Shown here: positions 19,530 through 53,481 of the stretch, in pieces
Numbering within the stretch: the first letter of the stretch is position 1
How the letters are laid out: the number at the start of each line of letters is the position of its first letter
Assembly: GCF_963676685.1 (NCBI RefSeq)
Contig: NC_092349.1
Location: forward strand, 46,748,001-46,812,000
DNA from: Mytilus edulis
Lineage: Eukaryota
Reading direction: 5' to 3'
DNA: 64,000 bases
Notes under the pieces: model-generated
Told to the model about the DNA's origin: nothing
The model's database searches: none
The model's input: the letters and a program-made list of their open reading frames with translations, nothing else
Translations under genes and position numbers: made by a program

Positions 19530-19795
19530 TGAAAATACGGATTTTTTTTGTGTTATTAAAATTTACTGTTACAAAATGATAGAAATTATTATAAATTAAG
19601 GAATGTATCTCCCTCATGCAAAGCTCTGATTCCTTACACGGATTTGGCTATACTTTTTGGACCTTTTGGATTATAGCTCTGCATCTTTTATGTAAGCTTT
19701 GGATTTCAAATATTTTGGCCACGAGCATCACTGAAGAGACATGTATTGTCGAAATGCGCATCTGGTGCAAGAAAATTGATACCGTTAATTTTATT
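19530..19795 (+). mobile_element. Dispersed retrozyme-like monomer in intron 2
   Basis: Colinear similarity to the 350-bp array unit (CTCCCTCA.GCAAAG, ATTTGGCTA, GGATTTCAAAT) ending in a hammerhead. Confidence 0.75.
19725..19768 (+). ncRNA. Type I hammerhead ribozyme, intact core
   Basis: Stem I GCATCA/TGGTGC; CTGAAGA; stem II GACA/TGTC; GAAA; palindromic stem III ATGCGCAT; predicted cleavage after C19762. Confidence 0.85.
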
Positions 19796-34776: not shown

Positions 34777-36940
34777 CTATACAGTTCCCAATGTATCTAA
34801 CAAAAGATTTTGGATTTCTGTATGATCATTTTCAACAGCCATCATCAAAGGAGACTGTCCTTCAACATCACATTTATTGCAATTTGCTCCTCTGTGTAAC
34901 AACATTTTTACTATATCTATTCTGCCGTTTTCACAAGCATACAATAAAAGTGACTCGCCAAACACGTAACATGTATTTATATCTTCCCCTTTGTCTAACA
35001 ACATCTTGACTATTTTTGTATGACCTTGTGTACATGCCATCATTACAGGTGACCGACTCAACCAATTAACACATTTATATGTTGCTCCTCTGTTTAATAA
35101 CATATTTACGATTTCGGTATGACCATTTTCACATGCCTTCATTAAAGATGTATTCCACATGATGTCATATGTATTTACGTCTGTTCCTCTGTCTAACAAA
35201 ATCTTTACTATTTCTGTATGACCATGTTAACATGCCTTCATTACAGCTGACTGCCCCCTGACGTCACATTGATTAAATTCTGCTCCTTTGTCTAACAACA
35301 ACTTCAGTATTTCTATATGACCATGTTCACACGCCTTCATGACAGATGACTGTCCCTGATTATCACAGTGATTAAAATCAGCTCCACTATCTAACAATAA
35401 CTTGACTATTTCTGTATGACCATTTTCGCATGCAGTTAAAACAGGTGATTGTCCGCTATATGTACAATACCTGTTAACATTAACACCATGATTACAACAC
35501 CACTTGACAAAAAAATAATCTCCTATAGAACAACAATGTAATAAAGCAGTAGGGTAGTAATCCTCATCCTCATGATCCTTTCTCTCCTTATGAATGCTAT
35601 CATCATCAGAATCATCAGAACTAAAGCAATCCATGTACCATAGGTCACATTCTGCAAGTCCAACACTAAAATCGTGAAACTCTTGTTTATCATTACATCT
35701 TTGGATAAAATCTTTATCAAAACTATGCGCCAGTTGTTTTTGGTAAGATACATCAAGCGTATTCAAATGTGACAGAAATGTCTCTCTGAAATTTGGAAAC
35801 TTCATATTGATGTTGCTGAATACATCTTGGACTTTTCCTTTTGACCAGTCATCTGACATTCTCTGTATGTAGATCTGATGATATTTTTGTGGTATAACAG
35901 TAATAAACTGCTCCATGTCATCCTTTCTTTCTAATACAAATCTTTCTTTGATCACACCACTGTCTGCGTTTAGGATCAGGCAATGTATTATTTTCTTTGC
36001 AAAGTAGTAAACCAAAAAGTCAAATATTTTACCATGGATCGTCTTGTAAACGTTTTTTTCTTCTTTATAAATGTATGTGTTAGTGAATCAAGTTCATCCA
36101 GAAGAATAGTTTTTGAAGTTCCTCTATTTAATTTACACGCCTCACAAATGTGTTCGATTATAGTTCTGGTTTCTTCATTCACCTTTTCCATCAGCATTTC
36201 TTCATTAACATTGTTGTTGAAGAAGACACATAACGCTAAAGCACAGTATTTGCCGTGATACCCTTTCTTGAGTAGCTTGTCAATTTCTGTTTCGTAAACT
36301 GAAAATGGATTCTGGAAGAAATCTGTAACTTCAAGTTCAGGATTATCATGATATAGTTTACATAAAAGTGGAAAACAATCATATAAATCATAGTATTGAC
36401 TGATATCAGATGTTTTTTCTTTGAGGTACAACTTAGCAATTGCTTGCTTTTCAGTTTCAGACAAACAAATGTCCTTAGATAAAATGTTACATACACATGA
36501 CTTGAATAGTGATAAACATTCAAACTTTTCATCATTGTAAATCTGTAACCGACATGCTACAATTATTTTTGCGAGTTTACTTTCAAGAACCATTTTCAAA
36601 TGATCAATAATTGGTTCCCAAATATTAATTTCACCCTGGTTAAAAGAATAATTTCCACATAAATCATCAACAATAAACATTGCTTTTTTACTCATGTTAT
36701 TTGGGTTATAAAATTTTAAAATGTCATCTGGAAATGTCACAGGAAGAATATCGTATTTGTTTTCTGCCATTTGTAAAGCCACGTGTCGGAGTGTTGCTGT
36801 CTTTCCGACACCAGAACTAGCAGTAATAGTTACACAACTATTTTCTTGAATACATTTGAGAACCTGTTGAGCAGCTCTTGTTTCTATAAACATCTTATCA
36901 TCAGTGTCTTTCCAGGCTTTAAGTGTTTCTTTGATTTTTG
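34777..36940 (-). pseudogene. Coding exon 4 of the HEPN-STAND-ankyrin gene: STAND (nSTAND3-like) NTPase plus ankyrin repeats, disrupted
   Basis: Acceptor tttcag (AG at 36941-36942), phase 1. Walker A ASSGVGKT (36798-36821), Walker B MFIVDD, IIVACR; about 8 ankyrin repeats (GQSPVLTACENGHTEIVKLLLDSGAD). Frameshift at the T7 run 36053-36059; in-frame TAA at 35227-35229 where sister repeats have Glu (KAC*HGH). Confidence 0.85.
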
Positions 36941-37719
36941 CTGAAATGTTAATTCAGTGTCAATTAAGCATCTAGTGACATGCATGTAGTACATAGTAAC
37001 TATAAAAGGCCATATTTGTACGATAATTTCATTAAAACCGTTCAATTGAAACTTGAATTACAAATTAATTAGTTATCATTATAATGATTTCACTGTACTT
37101 TTTTATTTATTGTACATGAATCTTTTTGTTGGAATAAAGGAAATCGTTAGGATCTCTTACTTTCATTTATGTTGACTCGGTCTTTTCTGAGTAATTTAAA
37201 CTTTACCTTAAAAGTTCTTACAGACAAATGAAAAGGAATTTTCCTTTAATTGTATGTGTTGAGCTATCAAGACCGTATGCAATAAAAAAAACACCTCCAA
37301 GTTTATAAAGACAGACAGAGGTAATCATGTAAAGGACAGATTGCTAAAACGGGTAAAAGAAAAATATCAAAAATACCGAACTCAAAGGAAAATTCAAAAC
37401 GGAAAGTCCATTATCGAATCAGATGTTCAACCACATCAAACGGATGGAAAACAACTGTCCTTTTAATGACTTGGAACAGGCATTTCCATATTTAGAACAT
37501 TGTGGATATAACACGCTTTTATATCGAGCTAAACCTATCAGTTGTATGACTGTCGCATTAAATTCCATTGAACTGAAAACAATGTGTTAAAAAAATGTCA
37601 AAAATAGTAGTACATAGTTTAACATTGTGTTTTTATCTTAATCACTATAAAAACAAACAAATATGTCAACAAAGAAAATCAAAGTGGCATTAAACCAAAG
37701 AAAATAAGCAAAAATACAA

Positions 37720-38525
37720 ACTAGAGACTCCAAAGAGCCTGAGTCGGTCACAATATATTTTTATTTACAAATGATGCATGAAATAATACAACCGTAATAC
37801 TTTTGCTTTAGTTTCAGAGATACAAGTCAAAAACTGCCATTCTTAGCCATGTTTGCCATGCTGGTTGGCAGGCAGGGTCATCGGACACACTTTTAAAACT
37901 AAATACCCTAATGCTTATTTGTGCACAAATGTGGTTGAATTTGTCTCAGTTGTTTCAGGAGAAAACTTTGGAAAAGATTACAAAAATGTACGATAAATGA
38001 TAAATTTGACTTTAAATATAACTCCTTGTTGGGTCAATTGACCATTTTGCCCATGTTGACTTATTTGTATACCTTACTTTGCTGAACATTATTGCTGTTT
38101 ACAAATTATCTCTTTCTATAATTATATTCAAAATAATAACCAAAAGCAACAAAATTTACTTAACCTTACTAATACAGGGACAGCAACCCCACAATGGATT
38201 GTCCGATTCGCCTGAAAATTTCAGGACATATAGATCTTGACCTGATTAACAATTTTACACTGTCAGATTTGCTCTAAAGAGATATAAACCAAAATCTAAA
38301 TTTTACTACTTTGTTCTGTCTTAGCCATGGTGGCCATCTTGGCCATCTTGATTGGTTGGGTGATTGGGCATATTTTTCAAATAGAGACCCAAATGATGAT
38401 TGCGGCCAAGTTTAGTTTAATATGGCCCAGATTTCAGAGAAGAAGATTTTTTTTTAAAAGTTTACGACGGACGCCAAGTGATGAGAAAAGCTCACTTGGC
38501 CCTTTGGGCGATGTGAGCTAACAAA
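37720..38525 (+). mobile_element. Non-autonomous element with a 3' stem-loop (Helentron/HINE-like), nested in another dispersed repeat
   Basis: Ends in hairpin AGCTCAC...GTGAGCT plus an A-rich run. It interrupts a repeat whose halves (about 37370-37720 and 38525-38786) resemble 15380-16040. Confidence 0.5.
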
Positions 38526-38781
38526 CGAACATTGTACAATAACATCATGGCAGAATGTATAAGTAACGAAGCAGGTCGAAAAGATATTATCAAAAATGGA
38601 CTAAACAGTAAAGGTTAATAGTTAACAAAGACAAATAAAAGACCACAATTAGACGTTATTAAGATTATAGATAACGTCAATAGATAGAATCTATACTTAA
38701 AAACCATCATGTATTTTTTGATGAAATTGATACGGAATATTAATCAACTTTCTCTTGGTATCTTCAGATAAACTCTTTTAG

Positions 38782-39141
38782 AAATGAATATGGGTTGTGA
38801 CATTACACGAGAAGTAAAGGAAAAACATTTTATTTCAAAATTTAAATCACGATTGAATGCAAACTATGCATTTTCTATTGTGTAATAATGACGCTCCATA
38901 CTTCTATATATAGACTAAGTGTAATACGATTTATCTCCCTTTATATACTCAACGACAACTATGACGTTACATACCTACCGTTACATAGTTACGTTAATCA
39001 TGTATAGTTTCACCTGAAGATTGTTATTTAAACATGAAAGTACTAGTGAATTAAAACTATTCATACCGGAAATGTTGAATTTTTAGTAATCTATATATAT
39101 TTCTATACACAAGAACATTTATTATAGTGATCTTTATATAT
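38782..39141 (+). repeat. 5' pseudo-LTR (partial tandem copy of the element's 3' end)
   Basis: Identical to 42560-42919 except A38923/C42701; includes the last codons of the endonuclease. Confidence 0.93.
39009..39050 (+). ncRNA. Type I hammerhead ribozyme in the 5' pLTR
   Basis: TTCAC CTGAAGA T-TGTT-ATTTA-AACA-T GAAA GTAC TA GTGAA; palindromic stem III AGTACT. Confidence 0.8.
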
Positions 39142-39160
39142 TTATTGTGTGTGTGCCAAC

Positions 39161-40408
39161 ATGGCCGGAGGAGCTACAAAGAAGACTAACGAAACAGAAA
39201 GACTTCTTGGGGAGATACTTAATAAGCTAAGTATATCAGTTACAAAGATAGACTTCCATACTTCAATTCTTAAAGATATGGAAAAAAACTCATCTGATTT
39301 ACGACCAATACAAGAGGCGTTAAATTCAGAAATAAGAAACTTGTCCGATACAATTGCCGTTATACCTCAAACAACTAGGCAAATTCCCGTAGATGAACTA
39401 CTTTCTACCCCAGAATGGATAAGTAATCTAAATGATGCTAATTTAGAAAAAGAAGCATTCCGTAAAAGAAAGGAAATCTCAAAATTATGGAGCAGAAATT
39501 TAAACGACCGAAAACAAAATTTCTGGAATGCTTACAAATGCGAAAAATACGCAGAGGTTTATTCACGATGGATAACCATGGATTCACCCATTTTTCCAAG
39601 AAAATTTCTGATTAAAGAAATTGAAGCCGAACCAATCGAAGACACGAAACTTCGTTGGGATTTGGCAATTCAACAATTTCAAACAGAAATTTCAATTATC
39701 TTAAATAAACAAACTCGCTACACTGAGAAATACAACGCAATTGATGCTGAAATGGTGGCAGGAATACAAAAGATATCAACGGAAAGAATAGCTGAAAAGC
39801 TTAAGGAAATTTGGACACGTGATATTTTCAAAGAAGAGGAAAAATCCCGTAATTTATGGCATAAGAAGCAAGAATTCTTAGAAAATTACATAAAAAATTA
39901 CGGTAAAGAGCAGTCTTTTGAAGATAATCGTAAACCAAATAAATACAAGAAACGGCAACAACGATCAAAACTTCAAACTGGTCAAAATACCAGAAGACAA
40001 CCAAGTGGACAAAAGAAGATAACCAATCGCAGACGCTCAAGTTCGACAGCCAGAAAAAATACTGCGACAAACATTTCAAGAAGGCAAAGTCGGTCAGTGT
40101 CGACAAAAGGAGAACGAAAATCATATGCGGAAGTTGTTCGCAATGCTTCGTCTCAAAAACGTCGGACAGCGAATCCGCAGTCAGCTGGTAGAGGAAACTA
40201 CCAACAAAATCGCCGTTCAAGAAATAAATCAGTGAACCGATCCCGTATCAATAAGAATAACGTTCAAAACAACCGGCAAAATTATGTAAATTATGTAAAA
40301 ACTAATCAGCGCCAGAATCAAGAAAAACGTATTCATTTTTTAGTGTCGGGCCAAATAACTCCCGAGAGGGAGAAAAATCCAGAAGAAACCAGTCTAAAAC
40401 ATGCCTAA
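39161..40408 (+). CDS. Penelope ORF1: helical/coiled-coil N-terminus and very basic R/K/N/S-rich C-terminus, 415 aa
   Basis: ATG in CAACATGG context 20 nt after the pLTR; uninterrupted ORF. Confidence 0.8.
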   Translation: MAGGATKKTNETERLLGEILNKLSISVTKIDFHTSILKDMEKNSSDLRPIQEALNSEIRNLSDTIAVIPQTTRQIPVDELLSTPEWISNLNDANLEKEAFRKRKEISKLWSRNLNDRKQNFWNAYKCEKYAEVYSRWITMDSPIFPRKFLIKEIEAEPIEDTKLRWDLAIQQFQTEISIILNKQTRYTEKYNAIDAEMVAGIQKISTERIAEKLKEIWTRDIFKEEEKSRNLWHKKQEFLENYIKNYGKEQSFEDNRKPNKYKKRQQRSKLQTGQNTRRQPSGQKKITNRRRSSSTARKNTATNISRRQSRSVSTKGERKSYAEVVRNASSQKRRTANPQSAGRGNYQQNRRSRNKSVNRSRINKNNVQNNRQNYVNYVKTNQRQNQEKRIHFLVSGQITPEREKNPEETSLKHA

Positions 40409-42663
40409 AAGTCGATCCAAAAATTATAAATTTGTCCAACAGAGTATTTAATGACAATGAACTGAAATTGCTTAAAAGGGGTTTAAAATTTACACCAACT
40501 CCCTCTGTGGATCATGATGAACTTAAAGCAGACATGTTGAAATTTTGTCGAAGATTGAGACTCACTGAATATTTCGCGGATAAAGAAAGTGAGGAGGACG
40601 ACTCGTTAGTAAGAAACAAATCTACCTTTATTCCAAATACCGGAAGAAACAAGTGTTTAGATGACTATATCGAAAATTTGTCCAACTACCCACTTACACC
40701 AATTAAAGTCAACCACAACTTAACTAAAGGCGAAAAGTCAGCACTCCAAAATCTAAGAAACGATAAAAGCATAGTAATTAAGCAGGCCGATAAAGGTGGG
40801 GCAATAGTAATAATGGATTCAGACTACTATAGAATTAAAGTTGAAGAACAACTCAATGATTCGACATTTTACTCAGAAATTCCTGATAATATAGATCATC
40901 TAGTCAAGAGAAGAATGAATACCGTACTGAACAAATACACAACGGCCACTACGGAAAAAGAGTATGATTACTTGAAAAATTTCGAAAGGAAAACGAGTAA
41001 CTTTTATGGCCTTCCAAAAATCCATAAATCAAAGGAGATCCAATCGGCTATTAATTCTCAGCAAAACGAATACATAAAAGTGCAAAAACCGACGGATCTT
41101 AAACTTAGACCCATCATTGCAGGTCCAGCAAGTCCCACTCACAGACTAAGCAACTTTTTAGACATAATTTTGAAACCATTGTGTAAATATGTACCGAGCT
41201 ATATAAGAGACGATATAGATTTTCTCTCACACCTGCCAAAAATAGCACCGGTTCACGCTCGTTTAGTAAGCTTCGATGTCACAAGCCTATATACGAACAT
41301 TCCACACGATTTAGGAATAGAGGCAATACAATATTGGGTTGCAAAACATCGAGATGCAATACCAAATCGATTCACTGTTGACTTTATATACTCGATTCTA
41401 CTAAACTAATTCTTGAAAACAATTCTTTCTATTTCAATGGCAAGAACTATTTGCAACATCGGGGGACAGCAATGGGAACAAAATTTGCACCAACCTATGC
41501 AACATTAGTCATGGGCTTCCTTGAACAAAGACTGTATCAAGAAGTTGAAAATAATTTTGGAGTTGAATTTGCAAGAGAATTCGAATTATCATGGAAAAGA
41601 TACCTTGATGATTGCTTCATTATCTGGAACAAATCCGACGAAGAACTCCAACTATTTTCGGACATACTAAATAACCTTCATACCTCCATAAAATTTACGA
41701 AGGATGAAAATTTTAACCAATTACCGTTTCTAGACATTCTTGTTATTAAAGATGGCACTGAAATTAAAACCGATATTTTTTACAAAGGTACTGATACTCA
41801 TCAGTATTTAGATTTTAATTCGTGCCACCCATCTCATACCAAAAGGAATATCCCCTATTGTTTAGCAAGAAAAATATGTACAGTAGTCGAGGATGAACAT
41901 TTGAGAGAAGACCGTCTAGAGGAACTACAATCATTTTTGATCAAGCAAAACTATCCAGAGACTTTAATAGAAAGGGGAATTCAAATGGCAAAACAGATCC
42001 CAACCAACCAACTACGCTCCACCTGCGAGGAGCAGAGTAATAACAACGATAAAATACCGTTCGTTATTACACATAATCCCCGGAACTTTAAAATTATTCC
42101 CGTTGCAAAGGCAAATTTACCTATTCTTGATCAGGATGAAAAGATGCGCCGTTTAATTAATACAGAAACACTTCTACAAAGTAAACGGCAACCACAAAAC
42201 CTTAAACGACTATTGACCCGAGCACGATTCGACCAACAAAGAACATTCAGTGTGTCAAAATGTCGAGATAGTCGTTGTGGAGCATGTCCGTATATCCATG
42301 TCGGCAAGGGAATGGACATACCTAATTGGTCTATCACTTTTTACCAACGAAGACATTACCTGTAAATCCGAGAACTTAATTTATTGCATTAAATGTAATG
42401 GTTGCCAGGAAATTTATATCGGCCAAACAGGGAACAGTGTAACAGAAAGAGTGCGCATTCATAGACAACATATAAGGCAGCCACAATACAGAAAAATCCC
42501 CCTAAGCAAACATTTAGACGAATGTGGAGGGGGATTTTTTAAAATATTTCCATTTTATAAAATGAATATGGGTTGTGACATTACACGAGAAGTAAAGGAA
42601 AAACATTTTATTTCAAAATTTAAATCACGATTGAATGCAAACTATGCATTTTCTATTGTGTAA
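40336..42663 (+). CDS. Penelope RT + GIY-YIG endonuclease (starts in the -1 frame relative to ORF1; two internal indels)
   Basis: The frame is open across the ORF1 overlap (...FSVGPNNSREGEKS...PKIINLSN). Removing 2 nt at 41385-41390 and 1 nt at 42308-42310 joins the three ORF-track pieces into one RT-EN frame. Confidence 0.9.
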
Positions 42664-42919
42664 TAATGACGCTCCATACTTCTATATATAGACTAAGTGT
42701 CATACGATTTATCTCCCTTTATATACTCAACGACAACTATGACGTTACATACCTACCGTTACATAGTTACGTTAATCATGTATAGTTTCACCTGAAGATT
42801 GTTATTTAAACATGAAAGTACTAGTGAATTAAAACTATTCATACCGGAAATGTTGAATTTTTAGTAATCTATATATATTTCTATACACAAGAACATTTAT
42901 TATAGTGATCTTTATATAT
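42560..42919 (+). repeat. 3' pseudo-LTR followed by (TA)n
   Basis: Direct repeat of 38782-39141 at offset 3778. Confidence 0.93.
42787..42828 (+). ncRNA. Type I hammerhead ribozyme in the 3' pLTR
   Basis: Identical to 39009-39050. Confidence 0.8.
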
Positions 42920-43629
42920 ATATATATATATATATATCTATTACAAAATTAAAGAGTATTAAACAGATTGTGACAAATCATAATACGACGATCTATGCCG
43001 CGTGTTAAAACAACCTTATTGTTCATAACATTACTATTTCGTGAAAAAGTAAATTTACGACAAATGACCAAATAAATGAGTTAGATATAAATATTAATAC
43101 ACGAGTTCTGATTCCTTGACTGTTGAACTTTGATCTTTAGAATTTACACAACTTACCATTGTTAAAAATTCCACATATTAAACTTACATCCCTTCGTTAC
43201 CGTTTATCTACATATTTGTGACCAGATCTAAAATGACTTTTGCATACGATAAATAAAACAAATCTTCCTATACACACTTTTCCAATGTCATTGCATTACT
43301 TGTAGCTGTTTATCGCTTCCATTAATATTACAAATTTAAAAAAAAATTCGCATGGATGATAATTTGTCTCACAATATATCTATCTGACCTTCTGTGTTTA
43401 TCTAACATTATAAGGTATTATGAAACTATCTTTCCTTGACAAAATATTGTCCTGACATCCCTGTGTTAACCAGTTATATGTATTAAGTGTACAGACCATT
43501 GTTGACCTCTTACATTAGTAAGTACCCACCTGGTAAAGCAGAGACATGTTTCTAGACAAGCCTTCCTAATGATAATAAAATCAAAGTAAGTTTCATAATA
43601 ACAGTCTTAGTACTTTAACTACAAATTAC

Positions 43630-47453: not shown

Positions 47454-50400
47454 CTTCGGACGCAAGAAATTAATAACGTGTTGTTTTCAATATTTTACAT
47501 CACTGGGTCGATACCTCTGCTGGTGGACTATCAGTCCCCGAGGGTATCATCAGCTCGGTAGTCAGTATTTCGGTACTGACATGATTTAACAAACTTTACT
47601 AAAATTGTCCGTTTATAAATTTATAAATTATTAAGAAACTAAGGTTTCAACTCCCTCAGGCAAAGTTGGCTTTAGATTAATTTGGCTAATTATTTTAGGT
47701 ATTTTTTGACATTCAGCTCTTCAACGGTTTCGGTACTTATACATCTTCGGATTTCAAATGTTTGGCTTTGAGCGTTCCTGATGAAGGTAAATCCAGAAAA
47801 GCGCTTCGGACGCAAGAAATTAATAACGTGTTGTTTTCAATATTTTACATCACTGGGTCGATACCTCTGCTGGTGGACTATCAGTCCCCGAGGGTATCAT
47901 CAGCTCGGTAGTCAGTATTTCGGTACTGACATGATTTAACAAACTTTACTAAAATTGTCCGTTTATAAATTTATAAATTATTAAGAAACTAAGGTTTCAA
48001 CTCCCTCAGGCAAAGTTGGCTTTAGATTAATTTGGCTAATTATTTTAGGTATTTTTTGACATTCAGCTCTTCAACGGTTTCGGTACTTATACATCTTCGG
48101 ATTTCAAATGTTTGGCTTTGAGCGTTCCTGATGAAGGTAAATCCAGAAAAGCGCTTCGGACGCAAGAAATTAATAACGTGTTGTTTTCAATATTTTACAT
48201 CACTGGGTCGATACCTCTGCTGGTGGACTATCAGTCCCCGAGGGTATCATCAGCTCGGTAGTCAGTATTTCGGTACTGACATGATTTAACAAACTTTACT
48301 AAAATTGTCCGTTTATAAATTTATAAATTATTAAGAAACTAAGGTTTCAACTCCCTCAGGCAAAGTTGGCTTTAGATTAATTTGGCTAATTATTTTAGGT
48401 ATTTTTTGACATTCAGCTCTTCAACGGTTTCGGTACTTATACATCTTCGGATTTCAAATGTTTGGCTTTGAGCGTTCCTGATGAAGGTAAATCCAGAAAA
48501 GCGCTTCGGACGCAAGAAATTAATAACGTGTTGTTTTCAATATTTTACATCACTGGGTCGATACCTCTGCTGGTGGACTATCAGTCCCCGAGGGTATCAT
48601 CAGCTCGGTAGTCAGTATTTCGGTACTGACATGATTTAACAAACTTTACTAAAATTGTCCGTTTATAAATTTATAAATTATTAAGAAACTAAGGTTTCAA
48701 CTCCCTCAGGCAAAGTTGGCTTTAGATTAATTTGGCTAATTATTTTAGGTATTTTTTGACATTCAGCTCTTCAACGGTTTCGGTACTTATACATCTTCGG
48801 ATTTCAAATGTTTGGCTTTGAGCGTTCCTGATGAAGGTAAATCCAGAAAAGCGCTTCGGACGCAAGAAATTAATAACGTGTTGTTTTCAATATTTTACAT
48901 CACTGGGTCGATACCTCTGCTGGTGGACTATCAGTCCCCGAGGGTATCATCAGCTCGGTAGTCAGTATTTCGGTACTGACATGATTTAACAAACTTTACT
49001 AAAATTGTCCGTTTATAAATTTATAAATTATTAAGAAACTAAGGTTTCAACTCCCTCAGGCAAAGTTGGCTTTAGATTAATTTGGCTAATTATTTTAGGT
49101 ATTTTTTGACATTCAGCTCTTCAACGGTTTCGGTACTTATACATCTTCGGATTTCAAATGTTTGGCTTTGAGCGTTCCTGATGAAGGTAAATCCAGCAAA
49201 AGCGCTTCGGACGCAAGAAATTAATAACGTGTTGTTTTCGGACGCAAGAAATTAATAACGTGTTGTTTTCAATATTTTACATCACTGGGTCGATACCTCT
49301 GCTGGTGGACTATCAGTCCCCGAGGGTATCATCAGCTCGGTAGTCAGTATTTCGGTACTGACATGATTTAACAAACTTTACTAAAATTGTCCGTTTATAA
49401 ATTTATAAATTATTAAGAAACTAAGGTTTCAACTCCCTCAGGCAAAGTTGGCTTTAGATTAATTTGGCTAATTATTTTAGGTATTTTTTGACATTCAGCT
49501 CTTCAACGGTTTCGGTACTTATACATCTTCGGATTTCAAATGTTTGGCTTTGAGCGTTCCTGATGAAGGTAAATCCAGCAAAAGCGCTTCGGACGCAAGA
49601 AATTAATAACGTGTTGTTTTCAATATTTTACATCACTGGGTCGATACCTCTGCTGGTGGACTATCAGTCCCCGAGGGTATCATCAGCTCGGTAGTCAGTA
49701 TTTCGGTACTGACATGATTTAACAAACTTTACTAAAATTGTCCGTTTATAAATTTATAAATTATTAAGAAACTAAGGTTTCAACTCCCTCAGGCAAAGTT
49801 GGCTTTAGATTAATTTGGCTAATTATTTTAGGTATTTTTTGACATTCAGCTCTTCAACGGTTTCGGTACTTATACATCTTCGGATTTCAAATGTTTGGCT
49901 TTGAGCGTTCCTGATGAAGGTAAATCCAGAAAAGCGCTTCGGACGCAAGAAATTAATAACGTGTTGTTTTCAATATTTTACATCACTGGGTCGATACCTC
50001 TGCTGGTGGACTATCAGTCCCCGAGGGTATCATCAGCTCGGTAGTCAGTATTTCGGTACTGACATGATTTAACAAACTTTACTAAAATTGTCCGTTTATA
50101 AATTTATAAATTATTAAGAAACTAAGGTTTCAACTCCCTCAGGCAAAGTTGGCTTTAGATTAATTTGGCTAATTATTTTAGGTATTTTTTGACATTCAGC
50201 TCTTCAACGGTTTCGGTACTTATACATCTTCGGATTTCAAATGTTTGGCTTTGAGCGTTCCTGATGAAGGTAAATCCAGAAAAGCGCTTCGGACGCAAGA
50301 AATTAATAACGTGTTGTTTTCAATATTTTACATCACTGGGTCGATACCTCTGCTGGTGGACTATCAGTCCCCGAGGGTATCATCAGCTCGGTAGTCAGTA

Positions 50401-53400
50401 TTTCGGTACTGACATGATTTAACAAACTTTACTAAAATTGTCCGTTTATAAATTTATAAATTATTAAGAAACTAAGGTTTCAACTCCCTCAGGCAAAGTT
50501 GGCTTTAGATTAATTTGGCTAATTATTTTAGGTATTTTTTGACATTCAGCTCTTCAACGGTTTCGGTACTTATACATCTTCTCGGATTTCAAATGTTTGG
50601 CTTTGAGCGTTCCTGATGAAGGTAAATCCAGAAAAGCGCTTCGGACGCAAGAAATTAATAACGTGTTGTTTTCAATATTTTACATCACTGGGTCGATACC
50701 TCTGCTGGTGGACTATCAGTCCCCGAGGGTATCATCAGCTCGGTAGTCAGTATTTCGGTACTGACATGATTTAACAAACTTTACTAAAATTGTCCGTTTA
50801 TAAATTTATAAATTATTAAGAAACTAAGGTTTCAACTCCCTCAGGCAAAGTTGGCTTTAGATTAATTTGGCTAATTATTTTAGGTATTTTTTGACATTCA
50901 GCTCTTCAACGGTTTCGGTACTTATACATCTTCGGATTTCAAATGTTTGGCTTTGAGCGTTCCTGATGAAGGTAAATCCAGAAAAGCGCTTCGGACGCAA
51001 GAAATTAATAACGTGTTGTTTTCAATATTTTACATCACTGGGTCGATACCTCTGCTGGTGGACTATCAGTCCCCGAGGGTATCATCAGCTCGGTAGTCAG
51101 TATTTCGGTACTGACATGATTTAACAAACTTTACTAAAATTGTCCGTTTATAAATTTATAAATTATTAAGAAACTAAGGTTTCAACTCCCTCAGGCAAAG
51201 TTGGCTTTAGATTAATTTGGCTAATTATTTTAGGTATTTTTTGACATTCAGCTCTTCAACGGTTTCGGTACTTATACATCTTCGGATTTCAAATGTTTGG
51301 CTTTGAGCGTTCCTGATGAAGGTAAATCCAGAAAAGCGCTTCGGACGCAAGAAATTAATAACGTGTTGTTTTCAATATTTTACATCACTGGGTCGATACC
51401 TCTGCTGGTGGACTATCAGTCCCCGAGGGTATCATCAGCTCGGTAGTCAGTATTTCGGTACTGACATGATTTAACAAACTTTACTAAAATTGTCCGTTTA
51501 TAAATTTATAAATTATTAAGAAACTAAGGTTTCAACTCCCTCAGGCAAAGTTGGCTTTAGATTAATTTGGCTAATTATTTTAGGTATTTTTTGACATTCA
51601 GCTCTTCAACGGTTTCGGTACTTATACATCTTCGGATTTCAAATGTTTGGCTTTGAGCGTTCCTGATGAAGGTAAATCCAGCAAAAGCGCTTCGGACGCA
51701 AGAAATTAATAACGTGTTGTTTTCAATATTTTACATCACTGGGTCGATACCTCTGCTGGTGGACTATCAGTCCCCGAGGGTATCATCAGCTCGGTAGTCA
51801 GTATTTCGGTACTGACATGATTTAACAAACTTTACTAAAATTGTCCGTTTATAAATTTATAAATTATTAAGAAACTAAGGTTTCAACTCCCTCAGGCAAA
51901 GTTGGCTTTAGATTAATTTGGCTAATTATTTTAGGTATTTTTTGACATTCAGCTCTTCAACGGTTTCGGTACTTATACATCTTCGGATTTCAAATGTTTG
52001 GCTTTGAGCGTTCCTGATGAAGGTAAATCCAGAAAAGCGCTTCGGACGCAAGAAATTAATAACGTGTTGTTTTCAATATTTTACATCACTGGGTCGATAC
52101 CTCTGCTGGTGGACTATCAGTCCCCGAGGGTATCATCAGCTCGGTAGTCAGTATTTCGGTGCTGACATGATTTAACAAACTTTACTAAAATTGTCCGTTT
52201 ATAAATTTATAAATTATTAAGAAACTAAGGTTTCAACTCCCTCAGGCAAAGTTGGCTTTAGATTAATTTGGCTAATTATTTTAGGTATTTTTTGACATTC
52301 AGCTCTTCAACGGTTTCGGTACTTATACATCTTCGGATTTCAAATGTTTGGCTTTGAGCGTTCCTGATGAAGGTAAATCCAGAAAAGCGCTTCGGACGCA
52401 AGAAATTAATAACGTGTTGTTTTCAATATTTTACATCACTGGGTCGATACCTCTGCTGGTGGACTATCAGTCCCCGAGGGTATCATCAGCTCGGTAGTCA
52501 GTATTTCGGTACTGACATGATTTAACAAACTTTACTAAAATTGTCCGTTTATAAATTTATAAATTATTAAGAAACTAAGGTTTCAACTCCCTCAGGCAAA
52601 GTTGGCTTTAGATTAATTTGGCTAATTATTTTAGGTATTTTTTGACATTCAGCTCTTCAACGGTTTCGGTACTTATACATCTTCGGATTTCAAATGTTTG
52701 GCTTTGAGCGTTCCTGATGAAGGTAAATCCAGAAAAGCGCTTCGGACGCAAGAAATTAATAACGTGTTGTTTTCAACATTTTACATCACTGGGTCGATAC
52801 CTCTGCTGGTGGACTATCAGTCCCCGAGGGTATCATCAGCTCGGTAGTCAGTATTTCGGTACTGACATGATTTAACAAACTTTACTAAAATTGTCCGTTT
52901 ATAAATTTATAAATTATTAAGAAACTAAGGTTTCAACTCCCTCAGGCAAAGTTGGCTTTAGATTAATTTGGCTAATTATTTTAGGTATTTTTTGACATTC
53001 AGCTCTTCAACGGTTTCGGTACTTATACATCTTCGGATTTCAAATGTTTGGCTTTGAGCGTTCCTGATGAAGGTAAATCCAGAAAAGCGCTTCGGACGCA
53101 AGAAATTAATAACGTGTTGTTTTCAATATTTTACATCACTGGGTCGATACCTCTGCTGGTGGACTATCAGTCCCCGAGGGTATCATCAGCTCGGTAGTCA
53201 GTATTTCGGTACTGACATGATTTAACAAACTTTACTAAAATTGTCCGTTTATAAATTTATAAATTATTAAGAAACTAAGGTTTCAACTCCCTCAGGCAAA
53301 GTTGGCTTTAGATTAATTTGGCTAATTATTTTAGGTATTTTTTGACATTCAGCTCTTCAACGGTTTCGGTACTTATACATCTTCGGATTTCAAATGTTTG

Positions 53401-53481
53401 GCTTTGAGCGTTCCTGATGAAGGTAAATCCAGAAAAGCGCTTCGGACGCAAGAAATTAATAACGTGTTGTTTTCAATATTT
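47454..53481 (+). repeat. Tandem array of 17 near-identical 350-bp units, each with a hammerhead motif (non-LTR retrozyme array)
   Basis: GGACGCAAG follows a full hammerhead motif at 47808, 48158, 48508, 48858, 49209, 49591, 49941, 50291, 50643, 50993, 51343, 51694, 52044, 52394, 52744, 53094 and 53444. Confidence 0.95.
47772..47813 (+). ncRNA. Type I hammerhead ribozyme (first of 17 in the array)
   Basis: Stem I GCGTTC/GGACGC; CTGATGA; weak stem II A-GG-TAAAT-CC-A; GAAA; palindromic stem III AAGCGCTT; predicted cleavage after C47807. Confidence 0.85.

Follow-up and report, generated by a model that had tools for sequence, protein, structure and literature searches.

Penelope-like elements (PLEs) that carry an endonuclease (EN) together with a reverse transcriptase (RT) are canonically described as having one open reading frame (ORF), and the Neptune group among them is itself paraphyletic (PMC8557442). 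For some animal PLE type, however, the legend of Fig. 1 in the same source states that a frameshift with a pseudoknot can set ORF1 apart. Here, we describe a Neptune-like PLE in a 64-kb stretch of the Mytilus edulis genome (contig NC_092349.1, positions 46,748,001 to 46,812,000; below, the window), in which a separate ORF1 overlaps an RT-EN region in the -1 frame and the overlap contains the HIV-type heptamer T_TTT_TTA. Comparison with related copies, families and proteins suggests that programmed -1 frameshifting at this heptamer joins ORF1 to RT-EN, a reading to which we give a probability of roughly 0.87.

The frameshift-separated type is presumably the endonuclease-less Athena/Terminon group. 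An initial annotation of the window had set the locus against the single ORF of the prototype Penelope, which holds for the prototype, but a frameshift-separated ORF1 was already in print for the animal PLE type mentioned above (PMC8557442). Our literature search, with most subscription papers and Repbase beyond its scope, found no report of slippery-site frameshifting in Penelope-like elements; the available parts of PMC5009743 mention neither Penelope nor Athena, and those of PMC8310308 do not mention Penelope.

The heptamer in the overlap of ORF1 and RT

The overlap is defined by four features of the window:

39161..40408, + strand: ORF1, 415 amino acids (aa), a long-helix core (residues 1-245) and, after it, a basic tail of low complexity; the context of the start is GCCAACATGG
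40306..42663, + strand: region coding for RT-EN, which begins in the -1 frame, broken here by two copy-specific insertions, with a CX4CxxC linker finger and, at the C-terminus, a GIY-YIG domain
40336..40342, + strand: slippery heptamer T_TTT_TTA, Phe-Leu in ORF1, the predicted -1 shift site
40406..40408, + strand: ORF1 stop, 21 codons past the heptamer Leu; the commonest distance in the clade is 10

ORF1 runs from the ATG at 39161 to the TAA at 40406-40408. The TTTTTTA is preceded by CA, and because an ORF1 codon starts at 40337 it is read as X XXY YYZ, the canonical 0-frame phase, inside the overlap of two open frames. The RT frame is open from 40306, and its first ATG (40534) lies downstream of the IINLS residues of motif N1 (40423). 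On both points the initial annotation read the DNA correctly. The heptamer alone is commonplace, since the + strand of the window contains 49 copies of TTTTTTA; what goes beyond chance is its conservation, as 20 of 22 families have an in-phase T6N within the overlap, while 0.40 are expected from composition.

A DNA search of the M. edulis genome gave 16 matches, and two near-identical sister copies share both the T6A and the offset, while the decayed copy L004 has a T-to-G change inside the T-run. For the wider protein search, which gave at least 146 matches among the 150 of 665 candidates that were scored, the 30 best loci were inspected along with another 20 stretches. The heptamer is present in the phase of the RT in 24 of the 31 clade copies, and the other seven are either truncated at or past the site (three) or decayed (four). 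Fifteen copies keep an open RT frame up to the end of the locus; of these, 13 have the heptamer and two are 5'-truncated. In three intact families (L097, L098 and L099), the offset is the only break, with an ORF1 of 378-411 aa counted from its ATG and an RT-EN of 784-812 aa. The -1 offset is common to the sister copies and all eight families in the genome, and RT identity among five of the families is 50-59%. In a quick tree, the families with the heptamer form one side of a branch with a support of 100 (quick trees and FastTree were used throughout), and a single ORF with an ATG of its own is the usual arrangement among the genome's more distant PLEs. A related two-ORF PLE (L102/L059, at G000:C3:19.66 Mb) lacks a canonical heptamer; the -1 overlap of L059 is 256 nucleotides (nt) long and contains only T_TAT_TTA.

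A search with the RT alignment identified 80 metagenome loci. Of these, 60 were analysed; the remaining 20 were excluded, in most cases because the N-terminus of the RT is missing. Members in which the RT frame is long fall inside the clade (FastTree support 100), while shorter ones are placed by RT identity alone. The clade is marked by an insert of about 20 aa in the RT, after PK.HK and before RPI, and six of the metagenome ORF1s match the profile built from M. edulis at E-values of 1e-14 to 1e-37. The 22-family set holds one copy per family and excludes L107, in which the contig starts inside the site, the duplicates L121 and L166, and L161, in which the junction is replaced. The 20 in-phase T6N sites comprise 17 TTTTTTA and three TTTTTTG, and a heptamer of any kind is found in 21 of the 22 families, against 3.6 expected. 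Runs of six T fall into phases 0, 1 and 2 in 20, zero and one cases, and the run is exactly six T long at 18 of 19 sites. One family (L118) has switched to A_AAA_AAC with the phase unchanged. A search with the RT gave 621 matches at E <= 1e-100, and the insert is present in 118 of the 120 matches listed; the named relatives are mussels, oysters, a scallop and Solemya. Four RT-EN proteins of the clade (P0018, P0034, P0065 and P0115) are labelled by their source as belonging to a bacterial symbiont, and are probably host DNA in symbiont assemblies.

The ORF1 proteins give a second view of the site. A profile search gave 1307 clusters at 50% identity (E <= 0.001); 152 sequences were inspected, 147 of them new from the best 150 and five from another protein search, and 109 homologs with a full core and a tail of 60-300 aa were retained. 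Phe-Leu is present within the last 60 aa in 85 of the 109, compared to an expected 7.6%, and five have Phe-Phe. A scan of the metagenomes with an ORF1 pattern found nothing, and no longer, fused ORF1 protein occurs among 7849 candidates, which is weak evidence.

Two further sets of metagenome loci carry heptamers outside the clade. The distant PLE L149 (31% RT identity) has a T_TTT_TTA in a -1 overlap, and its ORF1 looks similar, by eye, to the extension found at the N-terminus of relatives with a single ORF. A second, separate lineage of endonuclease-bearing PLEs (L174/L175, L180 and L181; support 100) has a long ORF1 that stops right after an in-phase heptamer (A_AAA_AAC-TAA, T_TTA_AAC-TAA and T_TTA_AAC-TAG), with a stem at a 6-nt spacer in L174, and possibly represents an independent -1 frameshift.

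Probable programmed frameshifting and its alternatives

An HIV-type heptamer is kept exactly at the overlap of ORF1 and the enzyme, and therefore ribosomes are likely to slip back one base here. In the proposed mechanism, the majority of the ribosomes would terminate and release ORF1 alone, while a minority would slip one base back on U_UUU_UUA and produce an ORF1-RT-endonuclease fusion. Slippage would thereby set a high ratio of ORF1 to enzyme, and ORF1 may act as an RNA-binding or packaging partner.

Several observations weigh against this reading. Four of the 31 M. edulis copies, all decayed and with a broken RT (L027, L029, L033 and L041), have the site mutated or deleted, and in L041 a deletion has brought ORF1 into one frame with the RT. 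One family (L120) has only C_AAA_AAC, and the three T_TTT_TTG sites are outside the consensus in which Z is not G. The families are related by descent, so that the counts are not independent events, and 19 of the 109 ORF1 homologs have neither Phe-Leu nor Phe-Phe. In the protein P0223, ORF1 reads on through Phe-Phe-Phe into the RT in one frame, which, like the T-run length variants of decayed copies such as L088 and L090, would fit transcriptional or reverse-transcriptase slippage that puts ORF1 and RT in frame in some RNAs or copies. Six T is short for such slippage, however, and a slipping polymerase would be indifferent to the strongly skewed phase of the T6 runs; none of the intact genomic copies examined is in frame, and we consider this explanation very improbable. 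A sequencing error or one-off mutation in the window copy is a still weaker candidate, and we give it almost no weight: the copy does have two other frame breaks, but these are copy-specific, whereas the offset is shared by the sisters and eight families. An assembly error is excluded by the related copies and by the three otherwise intact families with the offset.

The base after the heptamer is G in 16 of 19 DNA sites, and therefore TTTTTTAG is also a possible 3' splice acceptor, with RT-EN made from spliced and ORF1 from unspliced mRNA. The resulting AG keeps a constant phase, introns are known in PLEs (PMC8557442, PMC4209133), and the peptides of five gene models (P0013, P0069, P0056, P0050 and P0121) look as if the exons were joined here. 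However, the AG is absent from L104, L111, L117, L118 and L120, it is missing from three of the 19 T6 DNA sites, and in 21 of the 85 Phe-Leu proteins the codon of the next residue cannot begin with G. Simple consensus scoring of acceptors and donors revealed no pyrimidine tract (the T content of the upstream 20 nt is 0.05-0.30), a second AG 9-14 nt upstream at eight of the 19 sites, and no phase-2 donor conserved across 11 ORF1s; in the window family, all three phases lack a strong donor. The gene models also conflict, as P0077, P0121, P0042 and P0203 take different junctions, and the first exon of P0013 is the flank of a single copy. Splicing does not explain the exact run of six T, its fixed phase or the switch to A_AAA_AAC, and is unlikely to operate at this AG. 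Alternatively, RT-EN could have a translation start of its own, reached by reinitiation or leaky scanning or lying at a non-AUG codon, with a T-run that merely encodes Phe-Leu in the 0 frame and Phe-Phe in the -1 frame. In many relatives, an ATG of their own precedes motif N1, and a more distant two-ORF PLE without a canonical heptamer (L130) has a stop-start overlap, ATGA, that suggests reinitiation. In the window, however, the first ATG of the RT frame falls past motif N1. Moreover, Phe-Leu can be encoded in 12 ways after any preceding base, and nonetheless T_TTT_TTR is kept in 20 of the 22 families, in a tail that otherwise cannot be aligned. Separate translation seems slightly less probable than splicing.

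The initial annotation had proposed programmed -1 frameshifting, and had named as its rivals a common frame for ORF1 and RT in other copies and RT expression by splicing at AG 40342-40343. The common frame did not materialize, as sister and distant copies have the same -1 offset and heptamer, and the splicing route is disfavoured by the absence of the AG in some families and by the donor and tract scoring. With both rivals failing in these sequence comparisons, programmed -1 frameshifting is the best reading of the locus.

Element anatomy and the ORF1 protein

The 4.1-kb element is enclosed by 360-nt direct repeats that are identical to each other (38782-39141 and 42560-42919) and have the character of pseudo-long terminal repeats (pLTRs):

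38782..39141, + strand: 5' pLTR, 360 nt, with the same sequence as the 3' copy
39009..39050, + strand: motif of a minimal hammerhead ribozyme, located within the 5' pLTR, with helix I TTCAC/GTGAA, CUGAAGA, GAAA and a palindromic GTAC
42560..42919, + strand: 3' pLTR, with a second hammerhead at 42787-42828, followed by (TA)n

The hammerheads were found by a pattern search built on the descriptor in section 4 of PMC4209133; Rfam gave zero matches over 38500-43200, hammerheads included. The RT fragment matches RVT_1 at an E-value of 6.8e-5, which is below the curated cut-off, and its motifs fit the PLE RT alignment by eye. The GIY-YIG domain (E 1.1e-5) is C-terminal and has two cysteines between GIY and YIG (LIYCIKCNGCQEIYIG). 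The finger between RT and EN, CRDSRCGAC (CX4CxxC), fits the CX2-5CxxC of Neptune, and its spacing to the GIY is, by eye, Neptune-like and unlike Nematis. By its motifs, the element is an endonuclease-bearing, Neptune-like PLE. Membership of Naiad/Chlamys is ruled out, since the EN is C-terminal rather than N-terminal, and that of the endonuclease-less Athena/Coprina by the GIY-YIG fused to the RT. Contrary to the single ORF of endonuclease-bearing PLEs, the window element and its intact relatives carry two ORFs in a -1 overlap. The window copy has two extra insertions in its RT-EN (near 41390 and near 42330) that have no counterpart in the sister copy L101, and is therefore defective; the offset between ORF1 and RT is separate from these breaks and common to the relatives.

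The first half of ORF1 has 99% identity to a protein labelled Mytilus edulis by its source. A model of residues 1-255, based on 17 sequences, consists of six long helices (pLDDT 84.6, pTM 0.61). Foldseek searches against BFVD and PDB gave no match at E <= 0.001, and ORF1 has no Pfam match and no usable match in the ESM Atlas. The all-helical model does not show the capsid fold of retroviral or LTR Gag proteins, and in its fold ORF1 cannot be called gag-like. By analogy with LINE ORF1p, the protein may have an RNA-binding, oligomeric role. ORF1 and the N-terminal extension of single-ORF relatives look alike by eye, but the similarity is not significant (hhalign probability 0.24, E 0.25; E >= 0.04). 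The basic tail contains a motif like SYA(E/D)VV(R/K), at about 40120-40143 in the window, and a loose form of the pattern is found in 40 of the 109 homologs.

Elsewhere in the window, a tandem array of 17 x 350 bp (47454-53481) has a hammerhead motif in 14 of its units and resembles a repeat of the retrozyme type. Solitary hammerhead motifs at 19731 (+) and 23788 (-) are possibly solo PLE or retrozyme ends. Upstream of the element, at 34777-36953 (-), there are host-gene pieces in several frames, which include ankyrin repeats and a P-loop domain (GVGKT).

The 3' context and the position of the ORF1 stop

Two features immediately downstream of the heptamer are candidates for a stimulator:

40343..40355, + strand: conserved 3' context, candidate sequence stimulator (19 sites), with G at +1 and GGC at +7..+9; +12 is A here and G in most families
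40346..40372, + strand: two alternative local hairpins, present here and not conserved in other families

Both hairpins in the initial annotation (TCGGG 40346-50 with CCCGA 40361-65, and CTCCC-GAGA-GGGAG at 40359-72) are present in the window, but they do not stand as a conserved stimulator. They are missing in the nearest family, and the downstream fold in the window is no better than that of shuffled sequences (z -1.05; 34 of 200 shuffles equally good). Local folding at 29 sites gave a median z of 0.05, with z <= -2 at four sites and no shared pseudoknot, and a long-range helix partner common to the families was not found. A stem-loop or pseudoknot 5-9 nt downstream, as in canonical signals, is thus not a feature of these 29 sites or of the window. 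Good local stems in L148, L106 and L174, possibly covarying in L113/L148, are lineage-specific. The bases that are conserved among the 19 sites are G+1 (16/19), G+7 (15/19), G+8 (17/19), C+9 (13/19) and G+12 (15/19), although this may partly reflect coding constraints in two frames. The stimulator is most likely not a shared RNA structure but probably a short 3' sequence (G+1 and GGC at +7..+9). The U_UUU_UUA of Semliki Forest virus also shifts without a compact structure, assisted by the first 14 nt on its 3' side (PMC2569925).

The position of the ORF1 stop is strongly biased. The distance from Phe-Leu to the stop is exactly 10 codons in 29 of the 85 proteins, compared to 1.9-2.9 expected under a geometric null; it is nine codons in a single protein and eight or fewer in none, where 20-42 are expected. 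The 10-codon state occurs to either side of the midpoint root, and the tree requires 10 changes to account for it, with strong branches forcing seven of them. Descent clusters the state to some extent, and the tail peptides that go with it lack conservation. In the four 10-codon cases for which the DNA is known, the distance from the heptamer to motif N1 varies (48, 60, 60 and 84 nt), which indicates that the ORF1 stop follows the position of the heptamer. With UUA in the A site of a follower and the stop in the A site of a leader, the two sites are 33 nt apart, or 30 nt after translocation. Yeast disomes of 61 and 58 nt, with spacings of 33 and 30 nt, accumulate at stop codons (PMC7784341), and work with Escherichia coli reporters shows that -1 slippage of a follower is boosted when the ribosome ahead is halted at a stop (PMC6815119).

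The match between the 10-codon peak and the eukaryotic disome spacing suggests collision-stimulated frameshifting. The short 3' sequence would probably stimulate the shift, and in many families it would be assisted by a ribosome that terminates 10 codons ahead and stalls the follower on the heptamer; in the window family, at 21 codons, the helper is uncertain and might be a second queue position or a local hairpin. Tentatively, the clade might contain a natural, selected form of collision-programmed frameshifting, in which a ribosome terminating one disome-length past U_UUU_UUA replaces the pseudoknot roadblock, but we regard this as doubtful. In that case, a higher ribosome load and slower termination would each raise the output of RT-endonuclease. 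Against the collision step, the stop distance is 21 codons in the window family and one in L110, only four of 20 DNA-known families have 10 codons, and 56 of the 85 proteins have other distances. The 85 are, in addition, known as proteins only, with their heptamer codons and RT linkage assumed, and a coding constraint in the -1 frame could create the stop as a by-product. We infer that collisions would assist frameshifting in part of the clade. A periodicity of 10, 21 and 31 codons is not claimed, as descent accounts for the clustering of the longer tails, 11 of 31 of which have a common C-terminal motif.

Comparison with known systems

The results describe a large two-ORF clade of endonuclease-bearing PLEs from marine animals in which the enzyme gene has no proper start; annotation pipelines truncate RT-EN or invent introns. 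The clade is a natural library of eukaryotic -1 sites without a shared RNA structure, and its 10-codon peak makes programmed use of ribosome collisions as a frameshift stimulator testable by moving the stop. The literature search found no natural programmed site that depends on collision at a stop, including in the available parts of PMC7618472, PMC9661723, PMC13712778, PMC8310308 and PMC8168617.

The closest relatives are the Neptune-clade endonuclease-bearing PLEs (PMC8557442), with which the element shares the pLTR repeats, the minimal hammerhead, the PLE-type RT, the CX2-5CxxC finger, the C-terminal GIY-YIG with two inner cysteines and the (TA)n beside its end. These are single-ORF elements, however, whereas here there is a separate ORF1 of about 400 aa, an RT in the -1 frame and an RT insert of about 20 aa. 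The frameshift-separated PLE type in the same source is similar in that a coiled-coil-like ORF1 is joined to the RT by a frameshift, but it is said to have a pseudoknot, while no conserved pseudoknot is found here and the element has its own endonuclease.

The HIV-1 gag-pol and alphavirus 6K/TF sites (PMC5009743, PMC2569925) have the same U_UUU_UUA in the same phase, and HIV-1 also has the same logic of a structural protein followed by an enzyme (PMC5009743). The Semliki Forest virus complex is alike in lacking a compact 3' structure and relying on the first 14 nt (PMC2569925). In contrast to HIV-1 and the alphaviruses, the present site belongs to a cellular retrotransposon, its ORF1 has no match to a capsid fold, there is no conserved stem-loop at 5-9 nt, and the 0-frame stop is biased in position. 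Effects of collisions or stops on frameshifting are described for synthetic E. coli reporters (PMC6815119), a herpes TK non-stop mutant (PMC8310308) and the 0-frame stop of SARS-CoV-2 (PMC8168617). Those systems are engineered or mutant, or work by refolding a pseudoknot, while the present element is natural and eukaryotic and has a spacing that looks selected, and the distance from A site to A site is 11 codons, compared to a peak of nine in E. coli (PMC6815119).

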